NCBI GenBank assembly: GCA_031459385.1
Contig: JAVKIP010000006.1
Coordinates: 1-64,000 of the forward strand
Length of the DNA stretch: 64,000 nt
DNA from: Candidatus Fervidifonticultor secundus
GTDB lineage: Bacteria > Sysuimicrobiota > Sysuimicrobiia > Sysuimicrobiales > Humicultoraceae
Reading direction: 5' to 3'
The first letter of the stretch is position 1. Every line of letters starts with the position of its first letter. The notes under the pieces are model-generated. The model saw only the letters and a program-made list of their open reading frames with translations, ran no database searches and was not told the origin of the DNA. Positions 4,858 to 17,113 of this stretch are shown in pieces. The position numbers were made by a program, and so were the translations under genes.

Positions 4858-5891
4858 GGCTTTCCCGTGGCCAACCTCCAGATCTCGTGCGTGTAGGCGC
4901 CCGCGTCAGGAGGCCTCCGGAGGGCGCCGAACTTCAGCAGGATGCGCGCCGTCCGATGGAACGCCACCGGGTCGAGCCGGCCGGGCAGTGCAGCGGCCCC
5001 GGGCCCGCCCCAGACCAGCTTGTTGACCTCGGCCATCATCCATGTCTGGTGGGCGCGGTCCAGCCTGGGATTCTCCTTCAGTACGAGTTCCACGCACTCG
5101 GCCGGATGGGCCCGGCAGTACTCCCAGCCCTTGAGCGTGGCGCGGAGGAAGCGGACGGCCAGGTCCTTGTGCGCGGGCTCTTGCAGCCAGCCTTCGTTGA
5201 CGACAATGCCGTCCTCCAGCACCGCCGTCCCTTCGCGGTTGAAGTCGAGAATCGCGAGGTCGTCGGCCGCCAGCCCAGCCTGGAGGATGTGCCAGACCTC
5301 GTCGTAGCTCATGGCCGCCGTGGCGGCCACCTCCCCGGCGAGGAACAGCGCCACGTCCGCCCGCTGCTGCACGAGCGTGACGTCACGGGCGCCCAGCCCG
5401 TACTTCTCCAGCGTCGCCAGCAGGGGGTACTCGCGGCCGCCGAACCAGACGGCAACCCGCTTGCCCCGATAGTCGCGCGGGGAGACCGTGCCTGCGCCCT
5501 TGCGCGAGACGTGCCGGAGGCCGCCCGCAGCGAAGAGCTGCGCGATGTGCTGCACCGGTACGCCGGCATCCTGCGCGACCAGCACGTCGACGAGCCACGC
5601 CACACCGAACGCCGCCTGACCCCGGCCGACGGCGTCGACGACGGCTGTGGGGGTGCCGCCAGCTTCGACGGCGGGGCTCAACCCTTCCGCGGCGTAGTAG
5701 CCCTGGGCCGCTGCGGCGTAGAAACCGGCGAAGCGCGCCTGAGCGTTCCCGGGCACTCGCACGCGGTGGCGCAACACTCCGTCGGTGTATCTGCGCCCGT
5801 AGGTCGCGCCAGCCAGCACCGCAATGGCGATAACGATGAGCCAGGCCCAGCGTCGCGGCGTCAATGACCTATGCCCGGGGCGCCCCATCAC
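4854..5891 (-). CDS. ABC transporter substrate-binding protein, NMT1/THI5-like
   Basis: QARFAGFYAAAAQGYYAAEGL, AAMSYDE, FLRATLKGWEY motifs; N-terminal hydrophobic helix; GTG start overlaps the stop of the giant gene. Confidence 0.8.
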   Translation of the reverse strand: MMGRPGHRSLTPRRWAWLIVIAIAVLAGATYGRRYTDGVLRHRVRVPGNAQARFAGFYAAAAQGYYAAEGLSPAVEAGGTPTAVVDAVGRGQAAFGVAWLVDVLVAQDAGVPVQHIAQLFAAGGLRHVSRKGAGTVSPRDYRGKRVAVWFGGREYPLLATLEKYGLGARDVTLVQQRADVALFLAGEVAATAAMSYDEVWHILQAGLAADDLAILDFNREGTAVLEDGIVVNEGWLQEPAHKDLAVRFLRATLKGWEYCRAHPAECVELVLKENPRLDRAHQTWMMAEVNKLVWGGPGAAALPGRLDPVAFHRTARILLKFGALRRPPDAGAYTHEIWRLATGKP

Positions 5892-8800
5892 TTGCTGTGA
5901 ACGACGACGTTCCCGCCCTTCAGCCCCTGGGCGCTGAAGCTGCGGTACGACACGCCGTTCTTGTCGTAGACCTTCAGCGCGTAGGAGTCCACTCCGATAC
6001 CAGAGCTCTGACCGCTGTCGGTCGCCTCGGCGGTGAACGTCGCGTTCCCGTCGCTGTAGAGCAAAGACCCATCACCCGCCCGGTTGATCTGAATCGTGCA
6101 CTTGCCCTCCAGCGTCCCCGTCATCGGGTAGCCCGATGCGTTGGTCTTGAACTGCAGCGCTGTTAACGAGTTGCTCTTGATGATGTAGTCTGCCGCCACG
6201 CCATTGTACATTCCCCGGTACACATAGACCATTTGGCCTTGCGGCTGGGCCTTCTTGTTGTACCGTGCGTTGAAACCAAAATTGCCATGGGAGTAGTCAG
6301 GGGCGGGATCCTCGATCCATCCACCGCCCGTGATGAACTGACCTGTATTATTGTAAAACGCGATGGTCGCTGTCTGCGCATACGGGGCGACATACCACGT
6401 ATTCGTACCTCCGCTCGGCCCGACCACACGCGCTACCACACAGTAGGTCTGCTCGTTCAAACTCATGTAGCTGTGCTCTGCCGTGCCGATGCCGTCACCC
6501 GGGGTGCCCGTATCCTGCACCTGCGCGAGGAGAACGACGGAGGGATTACCACTGTTGCAGCTACCGCCAGTGTAGATCCCGAACTCCACCCACATCTTCG
6601 TGACGTCGCCAATCGTAGCGCCGCCGCCTGTTTCCACGCCGGCGCCCACAAACGAGGCGGCCGCGCTGTCCCACACCGTCGCGCGAAGCATGAGCGACGT
6701 CCCGACCCGGGCGATCGTGCCGCCCGTGTACTCCACGGCCGCGTCCTCCCGGCTCACCGTGATCGTCACTGTGGTCTCGCCGACGTTGCCGCCGTCGGTC
6801 GTGTCGCTCACCTGGATCGTCACCACATAGTCGCCGGCCTCAACCTGCGGGGCGCCCGCCAGGGTCCAGCTCCGCGATCCGGGAACCTTGTTGTCGGTGG
6901 AGCCGAGCGTCAGGCTCAGGCCGGCGGGAAGCCCGGACACGGAGGGTCCTCCATTCTTCGCGAAGGTCGTCGTGGCCGCCAGAAGCGTTCCCGCCGAGTC
7001 TGCGTCTGTGGCGGTCACGGTCACGGGATCAATGGCGTCGGTGTACTGCGTCGACCGCGAGCCGACATTGGCTACAACGACAGGGCTGTCATCGTCGTCT
7101 TTGATCGTTCCTACGCCCTGGCCGTCGGAGATCTCGAAGTCGCCGGTGCCAGACAGATTCGCGAAGAGCGTCTCGTTGTCTTCATCGACTAGGTCCGGGC
7201 AGACTGTTACCGAGAACTTTCGCATCACAGGAGTATCGGAGCTTGCATCGAACGTAATCGACCCGCTGGCACTGACGTAGTCGACGTTGGAATCGCAGCT
7301 AGCTCCAGCAGCCGCCGTCGCGCCGGCGCTAGTCGTAGCGTAGTTTACGGTCGCGTCCAGTTCGGTGGCACCTGTCCTGGTCACGGTGAACGTGAGGGTA
7401 GAGGTCCCACTGTCGCCCTCGTCGGCCGTCACGTCGTCGATGCGCAGGAGGGGTGGAGCGTCGTCATTTTCGATGACCCCCTGGCCCGTCCCGTCACCGA
7501 TCGTGGCGTCGACCGGGGCGCTGAGGGTCACCTGGAAGGTCTGGTCCCGCTCGTAGACCTCCTCCCCACACACCTGTACCGTGATCGTCCCGCTGCCCGC
7601 CGCCGCCGGGATCGACAGCGTCCCGCTCGCCCCCTTGTAGTCCGGCGTCCCCGTGCTCCCACAGGCCGTGCCCTCGCTCGCCGCCACCGGCGCTGTCCCC
7701 GTAGGCGCTGTGGCATAGGCCACCGTCGCGTCCAGCTCCGTGGCCCCCGTCTTCGTCACCGTGAAGGTGAAGCCCGTCGTCCCGCTGTTCCCCTCGCTGG
7801 CCGTCACGTCGGCGATGCGCAGGACGGGCGGAGCGTCGTTGTCGAGAATCGTCACGGTGGCGCTGCTCGGTGAGCCGACAATGTAACCGCTCCCGGCAGC
7901 GAGGGTCACCACGACCGTCTGGCTACCCTCGTATACGGCGTCGTCGACGGGCGTCACCGTGATCATCGCGCTCGTGGCGTTTGCGGGGATGGTTACCGAC
8001 CCCGTGAGCGCCGCATAGTCGCTCCCCGCGGTCGCCGTACCGCCCACCGTGTAGTTGACGGTCAGAGCCGTCGGATCCGCCGTGGTTCTGGTGACGGTGA
8101 AGGTCCCCGTGTCAGGCCCCGCTTCGGCAGCGCTCGCATCGCTCGCCGTGATGGTCACAACCTGGGACACGGTCACGCTCGGCTGCGAACCCTGGATGGA
8201 GAACAACTGGCTGCTGCAATTTGGGTTCCCATAGGCGCTCGTTGTCCATGTCTTCGTGCCTCCGGTGGTCGCCGTCGCTGTGAACGTGACGACGACGGTA
8301 CCGTTAGGATCGATGCTGTTCGACGCCGCGCCGGTTCTTTGCGTTTCTATCGCGCCGGCATTGACTGTCGGCTGGCTCCAGGTGCGTAAGGTCGGGCCTG
8401 GGTCCGTCGCCGCCACGCTCATGTTGGCCGGGTTGCCTGCGCCGGCGGGGATCGTCACCCTGACACAGTCCATGCTCTCGCCGGCATTGCTGGTATTGGT
8501 GATCGTGAGCGTGTAGGTTGTGGCGGCCCCGACGTTGGTCGAGGTCGGCGAGATCGCCGCGGTGAAAAAGCGCGCAGCCGCCGTGTAGGGACCGACGTAC
8601 GGCCCGCCTTCTCCCACCGGTTGCGCGCCGGCTGGCTGCACCGGCTCCGTGCTCGTGTCCGCCATCGCCCGGGCCAGGTTGATGCGGCCGTTCCCCGTCT
8701 GCTCCTGCGTGCCCGCACTATCTGCCGTGCGGGCCAGGCGCCCGACAATGATCCCGTTAGAAAGCGCCGGATCGGCGGCCTTCATCAGCGCCGCCGCGCC

Positions 8801-11800
8801 AGCCACGATGGCGGACGCCGGCGACGTGCCGTGGACCGACGTGTAGCCCCCGCCCGCGGCGGTCGTCTGGATCTGTACGCCGGGCGCGGCCAGGAAGGCG
8901 GCCGGACCGTAGTTACTGCCTTCCACCAGCCAGTCGTTCTCGTCGGTGGCCGTCACGCCCACGACCCCGCGGTTGCCGGCCGGGAACGTGGGCGTGCTGC
9001 TGCCGCCGTTGCCCGTGGCGGCCACGACCACCACGCCCTTGGCCCAGGCGTAGTCGATCGCGTACTGCAGCGCCTGACTGAAGCCCGGGGCGCTAAACGC
9101 CATGAGGATGACGTCCGCGCCGTAATCTGCAGCCCAGACGACGCCGGCGACGATATCGCTGTCTTGTCCCACCCCCTGCGCGTTCAACACGCGCACGGGC
9201 ACGATCTGCACGCCCGCGTAGCCGACGCCGGCAATGCCGGCGGCGTTGTCGGTAAGGGCGGCGACGATGCCGGCCAGCCACGTACCGTGCCCGTTGGGGT
9301 CGGTCAGCCCCTGCGAGCCGTCGTCGGTGCCGTCGACGATCGCCGTGCCGGGCACGACTCGCCCGGCGAGTTCGGGGTGGCTGGCATCCACACCGGTGTC
9401 GAGGATCGCTACCTTCGCGGTCCCGGGGGGCGTGTAGTTGCCGAAGACCTGGTCCCAGCGGATTCGCGGCAACGCCCACTGCGCCGGATAAAGGAGGTCG
9501 GACGGGTCCGCCTGGGCCGCACGGGTCTGGTCGACCTCCGCGCTCAGCACCTGGGGATCGGCCTGGTACTTTGTCAGGGCGGTCTCGACCTGGCTCGCGG
9601 GTACGTCCACGATGTGCAGCCGCAGGGCCGCGATGACCTGCCGCTGGACGCCGCCGTTGCGCTTGATGATGGTCGCCTGCTCCCCCTCGGTCAGCCCGTC
9701 GACCAGCGTCACCAGGAACGTCACGGGCTCGATGGTGACGTCAAGCGCCCGGGACGCGGGGCTGACGTTGCCGGCCGTGTCGACGGCCCGGGCGCTCAGG
9801 CTGTGGGCGCCAAGCGCCAGAGGCCCGCTGGTGAAGACCCAGGCGCCGGTGGGGCCCGCGGCCGTCGTCCCGAGCGGCGCGGCGCCGTCGAAGATCAGCA
9901 CGACGGCCCCAGCTTCGGCGGTGCCGGTAAGGGTCGGCGTGTCGTCGGTCGTGATATCGTCGCTGTCTGAGAGGCCGGTGTCGCTGGCCGGCAACAGGTC
10001 AGGCGGCGAGGGCGCCGGTGGCGCGGTGGTGTCGACGGTCAAAGACAGCGTGCCTGACAGCAGGCTCGCGTTCCCGGCCAGGTCAACGGCACGCGCCGCG
10101 AGGGCGTGCACGCCATCTGTGAGGCCGCCCAGCGTGAGCATCCAGGCGCCGTCGGGTGCCGCCACGGCCACACCCAGCAGGGCCTCGCCGTCGAACACCT
10201 GCACGCGCGTCCCTGGCTCGGCGCTACCCACCACGGTGGGCGTGGGGTGAGCGGTGATATCGTCGTCATCCTTGCCGCCGGTGTCGCTGGCCGCCACCAG
10301 GTCAGGCTGCGACGGTGCTGCCGGCGGCGTCTTGTCGATGTTCAGGACGACGAGCGCCTCGGCGGCGTTCTCGGCGTTATCGGTACAGACGCCGATGACG
10401 TGCTGCCCGGCCCCCTCGACGCTGCGGGTCTGGGCACCGCTGCCGGAGCGGACTCCAGACAGCGCGTCGGTGCAGTCGAACGCCACGGTGACGTCGGTGT
10501 TGTGCCATCCGTCGGCGTTGGCCGGCGGAGTCACGGTGGCCCTGACCTCGGGCGGGGTCCGATCGATCTTCACCACCACCTCGACCGGCACCGACTCATT
10601 GCCGGCGCGGTCGGTGCAGGTACCCCGCACCGGCGTTCCGTCCGCTGGCGTCTCGCCGGTGAGGGTCACCGGCGACGCACACGTCTCGACACCGCTGGCC
10701 TCCGCGCCAGAATCCTCGCCGGCGAACGTCACGGTCACGTCGTCGCGGTTCCAGCCCTGAGCGTTGGGCGCCGGGTCGGCGTGGGCCGTCACCGCCGGTG
10801 GGGTCTTGTCGATCCGGTACGCGGGTGTCTCGAAGGTGGCGGTGTTCCCCGCGCGGTCGGTCACCGTAACCCTGCCGACGACGGCCGCGCCCTCCTGGGA
10901 CAGCACCAGCGGGTTGCCCGCCGGGTCGGTGCTGGCCACACCGGAGAGCGTGTCGGCCGTGCTGTAGGGCACCGCCACGTCGGTGCGGTGCCAGCCGGCG
11001 GCGTTCGGCGCAGGCGTGGCGTCGCCGAAAATCAGCACCGGCGGCGTCCGGTCGATGTTTATGCCGGTCACCGTCAGTGACACGGTGTTGCCGGCGCGGT
11101 CGATACACGTGCCGCTCGTGGACTGGTCGGCCCCTTCGGCCAGCAGCAGCCGCGGCGGGGGCAGGGTGCTCTCGACGAAGCCGGAGAGCGCGTCCTCGCA
11201 CGCAAAGGTCACCGTGACTCCGGTGTTGTTCCAGCCGGCGGCGTTCGGCGCAGGATCGCGCTGCGCCGCGATGGTGGGCGCGGTCTTGTCGACGTTGACG
11301 TCGGTGACGGCGGCCGTGGTGGTGTTGCCGGCGACATCGGTGCAGGTGCCGGTTGCGGCCTGGCCGGCGCCCTCGCCGAGCACCTGAGGCGCTTCCGGCG
11401 ACAGCTGCGCCACCCCCGCGAGGGCGTCGGTGCAGGTGAAGGCCACGGTGACGTCGGTGTTGTTCCAGCCGTTGTGGTTGGGCTCGGGGCTGCGGCTCGC
11501 GGAGAGCACGGGCGGCGTCTTGTCGATGTTGAACGCGGGCGAGGCCACGACGGCGGTGTTGCCGGCCCGGTCGCGCACCGTGACGTCGCTCGTCACGCCC
11601 GCGCCCTCGGCCGAGATCACCAAAGGACTGGCGGCCGGGATCGTGGTGTCGACGCCCGACAGGGCATCGCCTGCGACGAAGGGTACGGCCACGTCGGCGT
11701 TGTACCAGCCGGCGGCGTTGGGGACGGTCAGGGGGGCCTCGAACGTGACCACGGGCGGCGTCCGGTCGATGTTGATGCCGCCCACGGTGGCCGTCGCGGT

Positions 11801-13648
11801 GTTGCCGGCCCGGTCGGCGCACGTCCCGCTGGCGGTCTGGCCGACCCCCTCCGCGCTCAGGAGGACCGGCGTGGGCCCGGTGCCCGGCGTCACGCCCGAG
11901 AGCGCGTCGGTGCACGTGAACGTCACCGTGACGTCGGTGTTGTTCCAGCCGAAGGCGTTGGGGGCCGGCGACCGGCTGCCGGTGACGGTCGGCGGCGCCG
12001 TGTCGATCCTGACGGTCAGGCTGGCCGAGGCGCTGTTCCCCGCGCCATCGACGGCCGTGCAGGTGACCACGTGGTCGGCCGCGTCCCCGCTGACGCTCAC
12101 GCTGCGGCTGGCGGTCGGCGTCCCGCCACCCGACAGCGGCCCCTGGCTCAGCCCGCCGCGCGAGTCGGTGCAGGAGAGGCTCACGACGCGGGCGTCGTCC
12201 GTGGCGGTGACGCTGCCGGGAGCCGGCGATGTGGTGAACCAGCCGTTGGCGCCGTTCGGGACGAAGGCGATGGTGACGGAGGGCGCTGCCGTGTCCACGT
12301 ACAGGGTCCGGACCGGTGACTTCTCCGCCAGGCGCGTCCAGACCAGCTGCATCGGACCGTTCTGCGGGCTCGCGAGCCAGTCCACGCTGGTTTCGGCTAC
12401 CTGCAGGTCGCACTGGGCGCCGTTTGGGGTACCGCCCTTCTCTGTGCACCCCGAGGCGCCCCACGCACTAGACCCGGTGCTGGTGGTCTTGAACGACACG
12501 ACCCCTGTGTTCGTCCCGAAGAAGGCGTAGAGTCGGTCGGCCGCAGCGGACGTCTCGATGGAGAGGGAGGCCGTGGTGATCGTGCCGTCCGACGGCATGG
12601 CGGTAACCTGAACCGGCGCCCCCCACGACTCGACTGTTCCGGCGGCGGCCGCCCGCCGCGAGTAGACGCCGGTCCCCACACCCGCGGCGCTGCCACAGTC
12701 GGCGCAGTCCTTGACGTAGAGGAGATGCGCGACGCCGTCGCGGTCGACGACACCAGACAGTGACGTGCCGAACCCCAGGCGGCCGGCGCCGGCGGTCACT
12801 GCGCCCAGGAGTTGCACCGGGCCCAGTGTGTACGCGGTCCCGTCGAAGTTCGAGATGTTGCGCGCATGGAGCGCGTTGTACGCGCCGGCGCGCGCCGCGG
12901 CCACGAAGCCCAGCAGGGCGCCTGGTCCGCTGAATGGCAGCAGCAGCGGCAGGTCCTCGGCGCCGGCGTCGGGGGTGGTCAGGAGGTCGACGGGCGGCTG
13001 CAGCCAGGTCGGCAGGTCGTCGGGATCGGGCGCCACGGTGCCGAGGAGGCTGATCACCCCCTGTGCGCGCCGGTAGGCGATGTGTACGCGGCCCGCCCGG
13101 TCGCGCGCGATCACCGGCCGCACCGAGCCGGGCGCCGCGACCCGCGCGCCCACGTCCTGCTCGGGCCCGATGGTGACGGTACCGTCGTCGGCGATCCGTA
13201 TGCGGCGGTACCAGACCGGGCTGTAGTCGCCCTGCGCGTAGGTGACGTAGACAACCAGTTGCGTGCCGTCGTCGTGGACCCAGAGGCTGGCGGTGACCGT
13301 GGGCGGATCGCTGTTGTCGCGCTTGAGGCGCCCCGTCACCGGATTGGGGTCCACCGGCGCCCAGGTGGCGCCGGTGTCGGTCGACCGGAACAGCCACAGG
13401 CCACCGGGCAGCCCGCCCGGTGCAGGCATCTCGGGGTTGGAGACGACGACCAGCGCGTACGAGTGGCGCACGCCGCGCGGGTTCTTGAACACCTTGCGCT
13501 GCGTCTCATGCGCCGTTGCCGCGACCGCCCGAATCTGCCCGGTCAGATCGTTCGCGTTGCGCACCAGCGGCCCCGACGGCGCGGCGGCCGCCACCGTAGC
13601 GAAGGTGGCGGAGGCCACCACCTGCGGCGTCTGGTCATACACATGCAC
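5888..13648 (-). CDS. Giant multidomain surface protein: Asp-box/propeller-like N-region, Ig-like repeats, S8 subtilisin protease, Calx-beta domains; probably 5'-truncated
   Basis: S8 triad VAILDTG / NGHGTWLAG / HGTSPA with oxyanion ATGN; repeated NxxGWxNTDVTVxFxCxDALSG units; PDL..SDTG..DDIT..TPT Ig-like units; Calx-beta-like TITASDASAAEAG and LRIADVTASEG; RSTDTGATW Asp-box; no signal peptide at the apparent start. Confidence 0.85.
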   Translation of the reverse strand: MHVYDQTPQVVASATFATVAAAAPSGPLVRNANDLTGQIRAVAATAHETQRKVFKNPRGVRHSYALVVVSNPEMPAPGGLPGGLWLFRSTDTGATWAPVDPNPVTGRLKRDNSDPPTVTASLWVHDDGTQLVVYVTYAQGDYSPVWYRRIRIADDGTVTIGPEQDVGARVAAPGSVRPVIARDRAGRVHIAYRRAQGVISLLGTVAPDPDDLPTWLQPPVDLLTTPDAGAEDLPLLLPFSGPGALLGFVAAARAGAYNALHARNISNFDGTAYTLGPVQLLGAVTAGAGRLGFGTSLSGVVDRDGVAHLLYVKDCADCGSAAGVGTGVYSRRAAAAGTVESWGAPVQVTAMPSDGTITTASLSIETSAAADRLYAFFGTNTGVVSFKTTSTGSSAWGASGCTEKGGTPNGAQCDLQVAETSVDWLASPQNGPMQLVWTRLAEKSPVRTLYVDTAAPSVTIAFVPNGANGWFTTSPAPGSVTATDDARVVSLSCTDSRGGLSQGPLSGGGTPTASRSVSVSGDAADHVVTCTAVDGAGNSASASLTVRIDTAPPTVTGSRSPAPNAFGWNNTDVTVTFTCTDALSGVTPGTGPTPVLLSAEGVGQTASGTCADRAGNTATATVGGINIDRTPPVVTFEAPLTVPNAAGWYNADVAVPFVAGDALSGVDTTIPAASPLVISAEGAGVTSDVTVRDRAGNTAVVASPAFNIDKTPPVLSASRSPEPNHNGWNNTDVTVAFTCTDALAGVAQLSPEAPQVLGEGAGQAATGTCTDVAGNTTTAAVTDVNVDKTAPTIAAQRDPAPNAAGWNNTGVTVTFACEDALSGFVESTLPPPRLLLAEGADQSTSGTCIDRAGNTVSLTVTGINIDRTPPVLIFGDATPAPNAAGWHRTDVAVPYSTADTLSGVASTDPAGNPLVLSQEGAAVVGRVTVTDRAGNTATFETPAYRIDKTPPAVTAHADPAPNAQGWNRDDVTVTFAGEDSGAEASGVETCASPVTLTGETPADGTPVRGTCTDRAGNESVPVEVVVKIDRTPPEVRATVTPPANADGWHNTDVTVAFDCTDALSGVRSGSGAQTRSVEGAGQHVIGVCTDNAENAAEALVVLNIDKTPPAAPSQPDLVAASDTGGKDDDDITAHPTPTVVGSAEPGTRVQVFDGEALLGVAVAAPDGAWMLTLGGLTDGVHALAARAVDLAGNASLLSGTLSLTVDTTAPPAPSPPDLLPASDTGLSDSDDITTDDTPTLTGTAEAGAVVLIFDGAAPLGTTAAGPTGAWVFTSGPLALGAHSLSARAVDTAGNVSPASRALDVTIEPVTFLVTLVDGLTEGEQATIIKRNGGVQRQVIAALRLHIVDVPASQVETALTKYQADPQVLSAEVDQTRAAQADPSDLLYPAQWALPRIRWDQVFGNYTPPGTAKVAILDTGVDASHPELAGRVVPGTAIVDGTDDGSQGLTDPNGHGTWLAGIVAALTDNAAGIAGVGYAGVQIVPVRVLNAQGVGQDSDIVAGVVWAADYGADVILMAFSAPGFSQALQYAIDYAWAKGVVVVAATGNGGSSTPTFPAGNRGVVGVTATDENDWLVEGSNYGPAAFLAAPGVQIQTTAAGGGYTSVHGTSPASAIVAGAAALMKAADPALSNGIIVGRLARTADSAGTQEQTGNGRINLARAMADTSTEPVQPAGAQPVGEGGPYVGPYTAAARFFTAAISPTSTNVGAATTYTLTITNTSNAGESMDCVRVTIPAGAGNPANMSVAATDPGPTLRTWSQPTVNAGAIETQRTGAASNSIDPNGTVVVTFTATATTGGTKTWTTSAYGNPNCSSQLFSIQGSQPSVTVSQVVTITASDASAAEAGPDTGTFTVTRTTADPTALTVNYTVGGTATAGSDYAALTGSVTIPANATSAMITVTPVDDAVYEGSQTVVVTLAAGSGYIVGSPSSATVTILDNDAPPVLRIADVTASEGNSGTTGFTFTVTKTGATELDATVAYATAPTGTAPVAASEGTACGSTGTPDYKGASGTLSIPAAAGSGTITVQVCGEEVYERDQTFQVTLSAPVDATIGDGTGQGVIENDDAPPLLRIDDVTADEGDSGTSTLTFTVTRTGATELDATVNYATTSAGATAAAGASCDSNVDYVSASGSITFDASSDTPVMRKFSVTVCPDLVDEDNETLFANLSGTGDFEISDGQGVGTIKDDDDSPVVVANVGSRSTQYTDAIDPVTVTATDADSAGTLLAATTTFAKNGGPSVSGLPAGLSLTLGSTDNKVPGSRSWTLAGAPQVEAGDYVVTIQVSDTTDGGNVGETTVTITVSREDAAVEYTGGTIARVGTSLMLRATVWDSAAASFVGAGVETGGGATIGDVTKMWVEFGIYTGGSCNSGNPSVVLLAQVQDTGTPGDGIGTAEHSYMSLNEQTYCVVARVVGPSGGTNTWYVAPYAQTATIAFYNNTGQFITGGGWIEDPAPDYSHGNFGFNARYNKKAQPQGQMVYVYRGMYNGVAADYIIKSNSLTALQFKTNASGYPMTGTLEGKCTIQINRAGDGSLLYSDGNATFTAEATDSGQSSGIGVDSYALKVYDKNGVSYRSFSAQGLKGGNVVVHSK

Positions 13649-13671: not shown

Positions 13672-14922
13672 TTGCGCCTCGCCGAGGCAGGTGTACACCG
13701 TGCGCTGGCCGTGCTCGAGTCCTCGGCGCCCGACGGCGGACCGGGACGCGTGTGGCGTCCGGCCACGTACGAGGAGCGCCGGCGCTTCCACGGCATTGAG
13801 GGGCGCTTTCGCCTGTCGCTCACCGACGAAGCCGGCGGCGTGATCCTCGTCGCCAGCACCGGCGAGGTCGGAGGTATCGTCCGCCGCGTGCACGCGCGAG
13901 TCGTGTTGGCGTCACCGCTCCTGGGTGCCGCGCTCCACGCGGCAGGTCTCGTGCAGCTGGGCAACCCACCCGGGGCGACGGTGATCGTGCCCTACGGCGA
14001 TTCCGTCGCCGACCGCCGGTGGGCGCACCTCTCGACAGCCCACGGGGTCTGGTTCGAGTCGGTCGCCGTATCGCTGAACGCGCCGGGCATGCCCCACGAC
14101 CTCGCGGCAGGCCCGGCCGACCCGCCGGGGAGCTTGCGGGACGCGACGGCCGCGGCCTGGCCCCAGCCGGCACGGCTCGTCATGGCGCCGGGTGCACTAA
14201 TCACGCTGGGCCAGACCGCTCTGGCCACGGTCCAGCCGCTGCGCGCCGCCGGCGTCAACCTCGACGGCGAGGTGCGCACCCTGCGCGGGCCCTTGCCGCC
14301 GCCTGAGGTAGACCGCGAGTACTACCAGGGGCTGGCTGCCGCCAACCTGAGCAACGCAGCCGTGAATCAGGCTGCGGGCGCCGCGCACCGCGACGACCGG
14401 CTGGAGCGGAAACAAGAGAGCCTGTACAGTCCGGCCGAGTTCGCGCGCGTCCTGGCCTACCTGCGGCGCACGCCGGAGGCGGTGCTGCGTGGAACGGTCT
14501 ACGTTCGAGGCGGCGTCGCCCTCAGTGACGGCGACCGGGTGCGCATCACGGGCGGGACGCTGGTGACCGACGGCACGGTGCACGTGGTGCACGGGGGCAC
14601 GCTGGAGATCGTGCACGACATGGCAACCCGGTCGCTTGCCGGGCTGCTGGTCCTCGAGCCAGGCGCCGTCGTCGTCTCCCACGGGGGACGCCTGCGTGTG
14701 CACGGCCTCGTGTACGCTGGGCGCACCTTCGACGCGGGCGCCGAGGCGACTGTCGACAGCGTGGGGGCCGTGCTCGGTGCCGACCCGCGCATCAGCATCA
14801 GGAACCACGGCGCCCGCGTGGTCATCCGGTACGATCCGGCCGTGATGGGCACGCCAGGGCTCCGCGTCGCCCCGGACTCGCCCGTCGTGGCGTGGGTCAC
14901 GACCTGGGAGGAGCGGCCATAG
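13672..14922 (+). CDS. PilX N-terminal-like protein with beta-rich C-terminus; probably 5'-truncated
   Basis: AALRLAEAGVHRALAVL resembles the PilX_N A..AEAG...A motif; C-terminal GLVYAG/GAVLG/IRYDP; weak TTG start, no RBS, no prepilin-like hydrophobic N-terminus. Confidence 0.55.
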   Translation: MRLAEAGVHRALAVLESSAPDGGPGRVWRPATYEERRRFHGIEGRFRLSLTDEAGGVILVASTGEVGGIVRRVHARVVLASPLLGAALHAAGLVQLGNPPGATVIVPYGDSVADRRWAHLSTAHGVWFESVAVSLNAPGMPHDLAAGPADPPGSLRDATAAAWPQPARLVMAPGALITLGQTALATVQPLRAAGVNLDGEVRTLRGPLPPPEVDREYYQGLAAANLSNAAVNQAAGAAHRDDRLERKQESLYSPAEFARVLAYLRRTPEAVLRGTVYVRGGVALSDGDRVRITGGTLVTDGTVHVVHGGTLEIVHDMATRSLAGLLVLEPGAVVVSHGGRLRVHGLVYAGRTFDAGAEATVDSVGAVLGADPRISIRNHGARVVIRYDPAVMGTPGLRVAPDSPVVAWVTTWEERP

Positions 14923-15607
14923 CACCCGAGCCCGCCCGGGTCGCCGCAACGACTGCCACCATCTCGAAGAGCAAGTTCGCGGCCAGCAGCGACGTCAGGT
15001 TGGCGTGGTCGTAGGGCGGCGAGACCTCGACGAGGTCTGCCGCGACCAGGCGGACCCCGCAAAGCGCCCGGATGACCTCCTGCGCCTGGAGGCTCGTGAG
15101 CCCCCCGACCTCCGGTGTGCCGGTGCCCGGCGCGAACGCCGGGTTGATGCCGTCGATGTCGAACGAGAGGTAGACCGGGCCGTCGCCCAGCGCGGGCAGC
15201 AGGTGGGCCAGCACCCATTCGATGCCGTGCCGTCCCACCTCCTCCGCGCGGACCACCCGCACCCCGTGCGCACGCCCGAAGTCGAAGTCGGTGCGGTCGT
15301 ACACCGGGCCCCGGATCCCGATCTGGACGGCGCGGCGCCCGTCGAGCACCCCCTCCTCCAGGGCGCGCCGGAACGGCGTGCCGTGGAAGTAGCGGTGGCC
15401 GAAGTACTGGTCCCACATGTCCTGGTGCGCGTCGACGTGGACCAGGCCCACGGGCCCGACCCGCCGCGCGACGGTCCGCAGGATGGGCAGCGACAGGGCC
15501 ACGTCGAGCCCGCGCGAGTCGCGGGTATGGGGCAGACGCATGAAGGTGGCGAGTTGCGCGAAGCGCGGCGACGCGAACGCGTCAGGTGGGCGGAACTCCG
15601 TGGGCAT
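14897..15607 (-). pseudogene. speB: Agmatinase/ureohydrolase with in-frame internal deletion
   Basis: PRFAQLATFMRLP, VHVDAHQD, HGTPFRRA, SFDIDGINPAFAPGTGTPEVGG, DLVEVSP present; GLDVAL is joined directly to SLPILR, so the GVPFD...GPxxIR...GGDH segment is absent; 236 aa. Confidence 0.8.
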
Positions 15608-15751
15608 CTCCGACCTCCCGTGTGGCGGGAATCCTCGTCTAGAACTCCTGGGAGACGGGCAGAAACCTCCCGAAACCTCCGGTGGGGCGGCGGCATGCTC
15701 GGGCCATCCGTTCGACCCGACCGCTGCGCCGCCGGGTGAGGTGATGCAGTC

Positions 15752-17113
15752 ATGCCGCGGACCACGGTGTTTCTCCTGCTGGACGGCGTCCCGCTGCGCG
15801 AGGTGGGGGCGCCGTCGATCGCGCTCTGCGCGCTCGCCGCGGCACCGGACGGCACGCTGGCGGCGGTCGGGACGCGTCGCGTCGCGTGCGCGGACGAGCG
15901 CGCCTGGACGGGCCTGCTGCGCGAGCTGCGCGCCGGCGGTGCCGTCGGGGATCCTCTCCTCGTGTGCTGCGACGGCGCCCCGGCGGTCGTCCGCGCCGTG
16001 GAGGCGGTCTTCCCCCACGCGGCGGTGCAGTATAGCATTCCCCACCGGCTGGCGGCGCTGCGCCGCATCGTGGACGACCGCAGGAGCGTCGGCTGCGTGG
16101 CGGAGGCCCGCAGGATCTTCCAGGCCGCCGACCGCGAGGCGGCTGCAGCCCGCTTCCGCGCATGGCGCGCCCGCTGGCTCGCGCGGGGCGAGCGCGCCCC
16201 ACACGACCTGGAGGAGGACCTGGCGCGGTGCCTGGCCTTCTACCGGCTGCCACAACACCTTCGGGCCCGGGCGCGGAGCGTCACCGCCGTGCGGCACGCG
16301 ATGCGCCGTGCGCAGTCGCCGGGGGCCGCGCAGCGCCCGCTACCGCGCCCGGAGCCGCCCCACAAACCAGTGCCCGAACCCCTCTCGCCCTCGCGTCCCG
16401 AGCCTGCGCCCGCGGAGGCCCCTGTGGGGGCGATCATCCTGGGCGGCGCGCAGGGGTCTTCCGGGCTCTCAAGGCCCCGGCGTACGGCTGCCGTGAGGCT
16501 GTGGGCAGCCGCCGGCACAGCCGCCCTCATCGCCACAGCTGGCGCCCCCTATCTGCCCGGGCTGGCCCGCCGGCCCTCCGGAGCCGCTGAGCTCGCCACA
16601 GCGTCGTCCGCGGCTGCAGTGGCGCCCATGGCGCCGGCGCCGGTGGCCGGCGAGGCCCTCCACCAGGAGGACCGGGCCCTGGCGAGTGCCCCGGCATCCG
16701 CCCACCAGGAGGACCGGGCCCTGGCGAGTGCCCCGGCATCCGCCCACCAGGAGGACCGGGCCCTGGCGAGTGCCCCGGCATCCGCCCACGGGGACGCAGG
16801 CACAGCCGACAGAGCTGCCGCGCAGGCCCTCGCACCGTTCCCTGCCCGCGGCGAGCGGACGCGGGGTGTCAACCTCGTGCTGACCGCCACCGGCCGGTCG
16901 TGGCTGCGGGTCACGGTGGACGGAGTGCGGGTCTTCGAGGACGTGGTGCGGGCCGGCGAGATCCGACAGTGGACGGCTCGCCGGATGATTCAAGTCCGGG
17001 CAGGGAACGCCGGCGCGGTCGATCTCACGGTGAACGGCCGGCGGCTCGGGGTCCCGGGACGAGTGGGGCAGATCGCGTCGCTGGCCTTCACACCCTCCGG
17101 CGCTAGGCCCTGA
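15752..17113 (+). CDS. Fusion protein: degenerate IS256/Mutator transposase core + TM helix + repeat linker + RodZ C-terminal (DUF4115) domain
   Basis: FLLLDG, W..LL.EL, LVCCDG, AVEAVFP.A.VQ...H, L.FYRLP..L match IS256 core; SWLRVTVDG..VFE...AG, IQVRAGNAGAVDLTVNG..LG..G..GQ match DUF4115; GAGGTGA RBS 7 nt before ATG. Confidence 0.75.
   Translation: MPRTTVFLLLDGVPLREVGAPSIALCALAAAPDGTLAAVGTRRVACADERAWTGLLRELRAGGAVGDPLLVCCDGAPAVVRAVEAVFPHAAVQYSIPHRLAALRRIVDDRRSVGCVAEARRIFQAADREAAAARFRAWRARWLARGERAPHDLEEDLARCLAFYRLPQHLRARARSVTAVRHAMRRAQSPGAAQRPLPRPEPPHKPVPEPLSPSRPEPAPAEAPVGAIILGGAQGSSGLSRPRRTAAVRLWAAAGTAALIATAGAPYLPGLARRPSGAAELATASSAAAVAPMAPAPVAGEALHQEDRALASAPASAHQEDRALASAPASAHQEDRALASAPASAHGDAGTADRAAAQALAPFPARGERTRGVNLVLTATGRSWLRVTVDGVRVFEDVVRAGEIRQWTARRMIQVRAGNAGAVDLTVNGRRLGVPGRVGQIASLAFTPSGARP
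16661..16789 (+). repeat. Three identical in-frame 42-bp tandem repeats encoding HQEDRALASAPASA
   Basis: caccaggaggaccgggccctggcgagtgccccggcatccgcc at 16661, 16703 and 16745. Confidence 0.97.

Follow-up and report, generated by a model that had tools for sequence, protein, structure and literature searches.

In eukaryotes there is ample documentation of DDE transposases captured by their hosts, usually with the DNA-binding parts kept, but such cases have rarely been described in bacteria. The plant proteins FHY3/FAR1 and MUSTANG are domesticated Mutator-like transposases, eukaryotic and nuclear, which keep their DNA-binding region and act as transcription factors. Among bacterial membrane proteins, RodZ binds MreB through its cytoplasmic helix-turn-helix (HTH) domain. 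For the ISCth4 transposase (TnpA), the domain description in its paper places a dimerization domain (residues 1-56), the NDB domain (56-108) and an HTH domain (108-165) before the catalytic domain, with D175, D241 and E348 as catalytic residues and C262 and H265 in an insertion domain (261-325); the dimer is described there as held mainly by the N-terminal dimerization domain (PMC7780238). Here we present a gene at 15752-17113 (+) of the window, by which we mean the whole analyzed stretch of 64,000 nt from Candidatus Fervidifonticultor secundus (contig JAVKIP010000006.1). It encodes a 453-aa protein (P0001) in which a former transposase core is joined to a linker, a predicted transmembrane (TM) helix, a stalk and a RodZ_C domain. 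The joined open reading frame (ORF) is confirmed as real, the identity of the protein is near certain, and we consider it quite probable that the gene is a domesticated (exapted) remnant of an IS256-family transposase, now a host membrane protein serving as a RodZ-like scaffold. Overall, this supports the interpretation of a first-pass annotation, which had proposed a domesticated transposase core with a RodZ-type outer domain.

The frame covers 453 aa plus the stop codon without any internal stop, and a Shine-Dalgarno-like GAGGTGA, read directly from the sequence, is located 7 nt 5' of the ATG (15738-15744, +), both as first annotated. Third-position GC is 0.86 over the whole ORF and 0.90-0.94 in its first 600 nt, similar to the neighboring genes. 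Two Pfam domains are found above their cut-offs, namely Transposase_mut (PF00872) at aa 23-177, on profile positions 182-335 of 379 (E-value = 1.2e-16, 61.1 bits, cut-off 21), and RodZ_C (PF13464) at aa 376-443 (E-value = 3.1e-17, 62.7 bits, cut-off 23.9). The NCBIfam IS256 model (NF033543) matches aa 6-176 on profile positions 122-299 of 338 with 67.9 bits, below its cut-off of 150, and the RodZ equivalog model of NCBIfam gives the 453-aa protein 19.1 bits with a cut-off of 208; no HTH family of Pfam matched the protein at E-values up to 10. Since the IS256 match begins at residue 6-23 of the protein (profile positions 182/379 and 122/338), the ORF opens just 5' of the strand with the first catalytic Asp and has no counterpart of the N-terminal region, which agrees with the earlier claim that the frame opens just before the first Asp strand and lacks the DNA-binding part. 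No terminal inverted repeats (TIRs) flank the gene, as had also been noted, the best inverted pairs being GC-rich, at most 35 nt long and 71-89% matched.

The N-domain (aa 1-190; 15752-16321, +) is predicted to be cytoplasmic and corresponds to an IS256/Mutator transposase reduced to its RNase H-like catalytic core and four-helix insertion domain, as seen with PF00872, AlphaFold2 (AF2) and Foldseek. The AF2 input was a 73-row alignment of chosen relatives and the genome's own RodZ, from which fragments and matches of odd length were excluded. The resulting model has a mean pLDDT of 74.8 and is disordered outside the N-domain, a helix at 246-262 and residues 373-446; residues 1-190 are modeled with pLDDT above 90 in the order b1-b2-b3-a1-b4-a2-b5, followed by a helical bundle. 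The top five Foldseek matches in the PDB are ISCth4 transposase chains (6xg8, 6xgx, 6xgw; E-values 5e-10 to 3e-8, 187-195 columns), with retroviral integrase cores ranking after them, and a sequence profile of the N-domain matches 6xg8 at an E-value of 7e-19, so that the transposase likeness first seen in the letters extends to the predicted fold. ESM Atlas returned nothing by features and only Mutator transposase clusters by structure. A homodimer prediction for the N-domain (two copies, alignment A2) had a score of 0.00 and a mark of 0.42 and was used neither way.

The former active site was located by alignment with nine full-length IS256 transposases from the loci studied and 36 from a representative library. 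FLLLDG and CCDG hold the first and second catalytic Asp (D1 and D2), QYSIPH aligns to Q-x-C-W-x-H and RSVTAVRH to RTTNxIER. Among the 36 library transposases, Glu is present in 36/36, D1 in 35/36, D2 in 36/36 and the Cys of the CxxH in 35/36. In the window protein, D11 (codon 15782-15784, +) and D74 (codon 15971-15973, +) are kept at the two Asp positions, with Asp in 11 of the 12 sequences of the RodZ_C clade that cover the first and in 12/13 at the second. The QYSIPH motif (aa 93-98; 16028-16045, +), formerly Q-x-C-x-x-H, has Ser95 in place of Cys, as do 13/13 members of the clade (Cys in 0/13), and SVTAVRH (aa 176-182; 16277-16297, +), formerly TTNxxE(R/S), has Arg181 in place of the catalytic Glu, a position which in the clade is R, K or N (Glu in 0/13, basic in 12/13, Asn in one). 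Both motifs had been correctly read as altered in the first place. Homology to IS256 ends one helix past the Glu position. The N-domain has a pI of 10.9 and a net charge of +11, and the cores of the clade are at pI 8.9-11.2 in 11/11 cases. On sequence comparison, the N-domain is the bare catalytic and insertion module of an IS256 transposase. It shares with ISCth4 TnpA a catalytic domain of RNase H type that is split by an insertion domain of four helices, as well as both Asp and the CxxH His; it differs in lacking the dimerization, NDB and HTH domains (~165 aa) and the C-terminal tail, in the Glu to Arg and Cys to Ser changes, in the lack of inverted repeats, in being single-copy and syntenic, and in the addition of a linker, a predicted membrane helix, a stalk and RodZ_C. 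The plant FHY3/FAR1 and MUSTANG cases are alike in host capture from the same Mutator/IS256 superfamily and in loss of mobility, whereas the window protein has discarded the DNA-binding region and has its core probably tethered to the membrane.

The core is followed by a Pro-rich disordered linker (aa 191-245; 16322-16486, +), poorly conserved, with 14 Pro in 55 residues and pLDDT below 60, which ends in a basic RPRR. A single TM helix, oriented N-in, is predicted at aa 246-264 (16487-16543, +), where AF2 has a helix at 246-262, with four Lys and Arg residues before it and two after. The presumably extracytoplasmic stalk (aa 265-372; 16544-16867, +) is rich in Ala and Pro (36 Ala and 11 Pro in 107 residues; pLDDT below 50), and repeat analysis found within it a perfect 42-bp tandem repeat in 3.1 copies (16660-16789, +) with the 14-aa unit HQEDRALASAPASA. 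The protein P0002, 97% identical, has one unit fewer (two instead of three); the repeat number in the window is itself uncertain, as short-read contigs break inside the repeat. Finally, the RodZ_C (DUF4115) beta domain (aa 373-446; 16868-17089, +) matches PF13464, is modeled as eight strands with pLDDT of ~95 and is predicted to lie outside the membrane. Linker, helix, repeat stalk and DUF4115 domain were all part of the first reading and hold here, with the reservation that the helix is weakly hydrophobic. The protein begins directly with strand b1 and so has no signal peptide, and together with the four versus two basic residues around the helix this makes an N-in/C-out topology the probable one.

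The RodZ_C part is 45-53% identical to that of canonical HTH-TM-RodZ_C RodZ proteins in relatives of the same bacterial family (L061-L063), which points to a rodZ-derived donor for the outer domain, and just 33-38% identical to the RodZ of the source genome; a PDB sequence search with it gave nothing below an E-value of 0.2. A canonical rodZ, with HTH, TM and RodZ_C, is indeed present elsewhere in the genome, where it adjoins cinA, and the canonical RodZ at L002 contains HTH_25 (E-value = 1.3e-20). The window protein resembles RodZ in its predicted bitopic N-in plan, its Pro/Ala-rich stalk and its C-terminal RodZ_C, but has an ex-transposase core instead of an HTH as its cytoplasmic head, in a genome with a separate canonical rodZ.

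The joined architecture is conserved among relatives. A word-indexed database search gave 12 relatives (425-523 aa, 42-97% identity), all of which carry both Pfam domains, and the same joined frame exists in the same-genus genome G002, in G012 and in the metagenome loci L052-L054. Peptide-pattern searches, with narrow patterns, returned two related loci from genomes and six from metagenome contigs. Two relatives are named in their source only as 'RodZ domain-containing protein'. One RodZ_C-fusion relative (P0006) is labeled as a gammaproteobacterial metagenome-assembled genome in its source, the other placed relatives being Armatimonadota, and may reflect a binning error. Pairwise dN/dS values (NG86, with bootstrap intervals for the N-domain) are, for the N-domain, 0.35 (0.23-0.55) at a dS of 0.35 for G002-L052, 0.36 (0.23-0.57) at a dS of 0.28 for G012-L054 and 0.275 (0.19-0.43) for the window and G002. 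The transposase part, at 0.27-0.36 with upper bounds no higher than 0.57, is thus not near 1, in agreement with the early argument for domestication over a fresh insertion. For RodZ_C the values are 0.10-0.23, and for linker, helix and stalk jointly 0.55-0.66. These comparisons indicate purifying selection that maintains the architecture as a whole. Concerning the soundness of the assembly, Logan contigs from three of four DNA runs bridge 15400-16689 without difference, and so also the junction at 16300-16500 that had been singled out for checking, and end in the 42-bp repeat; the four runs belong to one hot-spring study, are labeled hot springs metagenome, are possibly the source sample and were not counted as independent support. 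No RNA run is listed among those that contain the stretch.

The RodZ_C form is one branch of a larger set of IS256 cores truncated at the N-terminus, most of which are anchored by a C-terminal tail and retain D-D-E. Relatives without RodZ_C are open frames of ~350-450 aa. Over their first ~190 residues they share the truncation boundaries and 42-51% identity with the window N-domain; the linker that follows is long and acidic, and a hydrophobic helix forms the extreme C-terminus. A profile built from 20 N-domains and searched against 1.84 billion representatives gave 8210 matches at E-values up to 1e-3. In all of the best 28 (at least 177 bits) the alignment begins at residue 1-46; from 168 bits down, the proteins are ordinary transposases of ~400 aa that align from near residue 165. 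Of the 28, 27 are of the truncated type and the remaining one (P0036) is a genuine transposase cut at its 5' end. P0014-P0038, the 25 that were new, include 18 with a hydrophobic 17-mer (at least 1.69) 0-5 residues from the C-terminus, four without such a 17-mer, one with a weak one, one short fragment and P0036. RodZ_C is found in four of the 29 sequences scanned, P0001 included. The main tail-anchored group retains Glu in 16/16 and D2 in 15/16, and the remaining minor groups have Glu in 0/8. Over 55 tail-anchored pairs, dN/dS is 0.11-0.40 at dS values mostly of 0.7-1.5, near saturation. These tail-anchored cores share with the window protein the truncation boundaries, the core, membership of one clade and a long disordered linker followed by a membrane helix; they differ in ending 0-5 residues past that helix (18 of the 25 representatives), in their acidic linkers, in keeping D-D-E and in their position in the yraN-comM gap. 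Linkers of P0014-P0028 are strongly acidic (13-41 Asp and Glu versus 6-18 Lys and Arg, except in two short or cut linkers), and the same sequences bear a conserved juxtamembrane motif D-L-S-x-D-x-x-F-x-x-W-L-x-x-x-R-R before the terminal helix; both features are absent from the RodZ_C clade.

Distribution was surveyed in 94 genomes of the lineage. The truncated type (at least 160 bits, 22 places) occurs in 17 of 34 genomes and 8 of 12 genera of the window's Armatimonadota family, and in none of 60 genomes from six sister families, which gave ordinary IS256 matches only (up to 130 bits). Two of the positive genomes (G010 and G019) are unpublished, and the conclusions hold without both. The sister-family genome G077 has at least 15 IS256-type matches, several of equal score, and looks like a recent IS expansion. 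At six loci in four genera (L032, L033, L034, L038, L040 and L044) the tail-anchored gene is established between yraN and comM, in the order ffh-ylqD-rimM-trmD-rplS-lepB-rnhB-yraN-[tail-anchored gene]-(MOSC or HAD)-comM-dprA-topA, and on the strand opposite to its housekeeping neighbors in all six. The yraN-comM-dprA-topA arrangement is widespread without the tail-anchored gene. In the source genome, which has no tail-anchored copy, yraN and comM are ~6.8 kb apart and the ORFs between them resemble hemE and hemB on inspection by eye. A link of the tail-anchored form to natural transformation, suggested by the proximity of comM and dprA, was rejected as unsupported, the gene being on the opposite strand and the arrangement being common in its absence.

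An IQ-TREE phylogeny of 35 cores was rooted on nine full-length transposases; the partial rows C4_L030, RZ_P0013 and TA_G010_L019 were excluded, and P0002 was not entered as its core is identical to that of P0001. All truncated forms group in one clade (100/100), and so do the RodZ_C forms (98/95). The sister of the latter (88/94) is C3, two sequences without RodZ_C in which D2 and Glu are lost and the terminal segment is Ala-rich and weakly hydrophobic; their relative P0034 scores 1.48. Tail-anchored D-D-E forms appear as a grade around the others, in an order that the tree does not settle, and are monophyletic in 10% of bootstrap trees. Tree and survey together indicate that the truncated cores have a single origin and are restricted, among the surveyed genomes, to one Armatimonadota family. 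The simplest reading would be one truncation, followed by membrane tethering, duplication and, in one branch, gain of the outer domain and loss of Glu; most likely, the outer segment from a rodZ was added to a tail-anchored ancestor, and catalysis was lost afterwards. This order replaces the one proposed in the first-pass annotation, where a dead core had taken the place of the RodZ HTH, since an already truncated, tail-anchored ex-transposase family appears to have come first and one branch of it to have gained the rodZ-derived domain.

At the locus itself, the RodZ_C form adjoins the same downstream genes in the window, G002 and L052, namely an S58 peptidase, a TIM-barrel and an SBP5 gene (88-91% identical), so that synteny, which the annotation had named as a check, is found in related genomes. 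Upstream, ~120 bp 5' of the ATG (from 15630) still align to the G002 and L052 loci; the 5' flank then differs from G002, G001 and L052, with homology ending at ~15630 in a rearrangement breakpoint. The adjoining arginase-family gene (14900-15613, -) matches Pfam positions 95-278 of 280 from its residue 39, so about a third of the domain is apparently missing in frame. In G012 and L054, the neighborhoods of the fusion gene have no gene in common with the window or with each other and offer no lead to its function; among the neighbors are, in G012, a P-type ATPase, a Usp and a RES-domain gene, and, in L054, SnoaL and ApbE. The RES-domain ORF of G012 (L029, 4539-5255, -) lies directly 3' of the fusion gene. 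Two marks of domestication are present, as the gene occupies a fixed locus without element boundaries and its transposase part is under purifying selection. Nor is it mobile, given that it lacks TIRs, that its type occurs only once in the source genome and that G002 and L052 have it at the same locus.

How such a protein might work can be proposed with moderate confidence. It would be located in the cytoplasmic membrane, N-in/C-out, and its RodZ_C would engage the same targets as the outer domain of RodZ, either the cell wall or the machinery of elongation. Rather than working as an enzyme, the strongly basic core, with its catalytic site disabled, may bind nucleic acid or a protein from the end of its flexible linker, and a head of pI 10.9 could hold nucleic acid or an acidic partner. 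We infer from these features that the whole would function as a non-catalytic transmembrane scaffold, RodZ-like but with a different cytoplasmic head, and the gene would be accessory and not essential.

Several observations weigh against this interpretation. The helix is weakly hydrophobic, with best 17-19-mers at 1.3-1.4 on the Kyte-Doolittle scale versus 1.57-2.24 in 11 homologs at the aligned position. D11, D74 and H98 are kept in the clade (11/12, 12/13 and 12/13), and some metal binding or chemistry may persist. A conserved neighbor or partner gene was looked for at the loci of the RodZ_C form and was not found. The gene is also dispensable, in that 17 of the 34 genomes of the window's family are without any member of the truncated family. 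The same-genus genome G001 (94% complete) is collinear with G002 at the locus and lacks a 1.69-kb segment that contains exactly the RodZ_C-fusion gene (L065, G001:C121, ~5043-5050, versus L031 of G002, 8316-10009; flanks 93-95% identical), with no obvious target-site duplication at the G001 junction. The gene also evolves faster than its neighbors (dN/dS 0.27-0.36 versus 0.12-0.14), and between the window genome (G000) and G002 the fusion protein is 58-66% identical versus 88-91% for the neighbors, and the core DNA 71-72% versus ~85% for the flanks. Absence from G001 and divergence above that of the flanks show that it behaves as a fast-evolving accessory gene. Finally, the inferred precedence of the tail-anchored form depends on a tree that is resolved only in part.

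Part of this evidence would also suit a functionless pseudogene, either an assembly chimera or a decaying IS256 fragment whose frame happens to continue into a gene resembling rodZ. The transposase part is cut at both ends and has lost its catalytic Glu, the 5' flank is rearranged beside an incomplete arginase-family gene, the gene is missing from G001 and contigs break inside the 42-bp repeat. However, the joined frame recurs in 12/12 independent database clusters as well as in G002, G012 and L052-L054, and an identity spread of 42-97% excludes copies of one misassembled sequence. Moreover, the truncation boundaries are identical across all clades, the bootstrap upper bounds of the N-domain dN/dS do not exceed 0.57, the third-position GC of 0.86-0.94 is coding-like and the core-linker-helix junction is bridged without difference in contigs of three of the four runs, all of which makes a pseudogene or chimera extremely improbable.

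Two functional explanations other than a scaffold were considered. As a transposition inhibitor, a truncated transposase would poison or sequester active IS256 enzymes at the membrane, for which the N-truncated inhibitor protein of Tn5 offers a parallel; the DNA-binding N-terminus is gone while the core is kept, full-length IS256 elements exist in related genomes (L045-L048, 29-36% identical to the core) and a few IS256 copies are found in the source genome. We regard this as very improbable, because the N-terminal dimerization domain, described as the main dimer contact in ISCth4 (PMC7780238), is missing here, the IS256 copy L004 of the source genome is just 27% identical over 163 residues, tail-anchored relatives hold a fixed housekeeping locus in four genera regardless of IS content, and the extracellular RodZ_C is left unexplained. 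An active enzyme, that is a membrane-tethered nuclease or strand transferase working on DNA at the envelope (e.g., incoming or replicating DNA), would account for the conservation of D11, D74 and H98 in a very basic core, and the tail-anchored relatives with their retained D-D-E (Glu 16/16, D2 15/16) lie beside yraN, comM, dprA and topA. It is improbable for the RodZ_C form, where Glu has been replaced by a basic residue in 12/13 sequences and by Asn in one, and where the CxxH Cys, important for catalysis in this class according to the catalytic-site description of ISCth4 (PMC7780238), is Ser in 13/13; as for the relatives, a gene on the strand opposite to its neighbors in 6/6 loci is not in their operon. 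A RodZ-like scaffold with a captured transposase core remains the reading that we prefer.

Among other features of the source genome, three IS256-type copies were located (G000:C8:70733-71552, G000:C8:74069-75046 and G000:C42:7-573), one apparently intact with a 455-aa frame, one broken by stops and one at a contig end; the intact copy (L004) is the one compared with the domesticated core above, and all copies are distant from it. Promoter and terminator scans gave no site with sigma-70 and intrinsic-terminator consensus patterns, which are uninformative in a genome of 73% GC. PADLOC assigned no defense family to P0001, to three of its relatives or to the upstream 416-aa ORF. A 2586-aa ORF at 5888-13648 (-) contains many repeated Ig-like segments and, by eye, a subtilase D-H-S region, and may be a giant surface protease.

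A full-text literature search found no paper in which an IS256 transposase had been domesticated in bacteria or a transposase fused to RodZ_C; the domesticated-transposase papers found were eukaryotic, and as far as searched the tail-anchored N-truncated IS256 cores have no description in print either. The RodZ_C-fused ex-transposases form a small, previously undescribed family of hot-spring Armatimonadota. The early suggestion of an undescribed system stands in so far as no paper was found, and falls as to the word system, as this is a stand-alone gene in varying neighborhoods and not a multi-gene system. Going further, one Armatimonadota family could have domesticated a bare IS256 core as a membrane-tethered module and diversified it into paralogs, with a D-D-E tail-anchored form, next to yraN, comM and dprA, that may be a membrane-bound DNA-processing enzyme, several dead forms, and a RodZ_C form coupling a DNA- or protein-binding head to the cell-wall elongation machinery; we put this forward as a speculative and, taken as a whole, unlikely scenario. 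If true, it would be, to our knowledge and within the literature searched, the first bacterial domestication of a DDE transposase into envelope proteins.

The truncated IS256 family is the reverse of the eukaryotic pattern, in that the DNA-binding and dimerization domains have been discarded while the core and insertion domain are kept and tethered to the membrane. It also offers a natural series, from the mobile enzyme through the tail-anchored D-D-E form to dead forms with or without RodZ_C, which could reveal the possible reuses of a bare transposase core. For RodZ biology, the fusion shows that the cytoplasmic partner of RodZ_C need not be the HTH that binds MreB, which bears on the role of RodZ_C itself.

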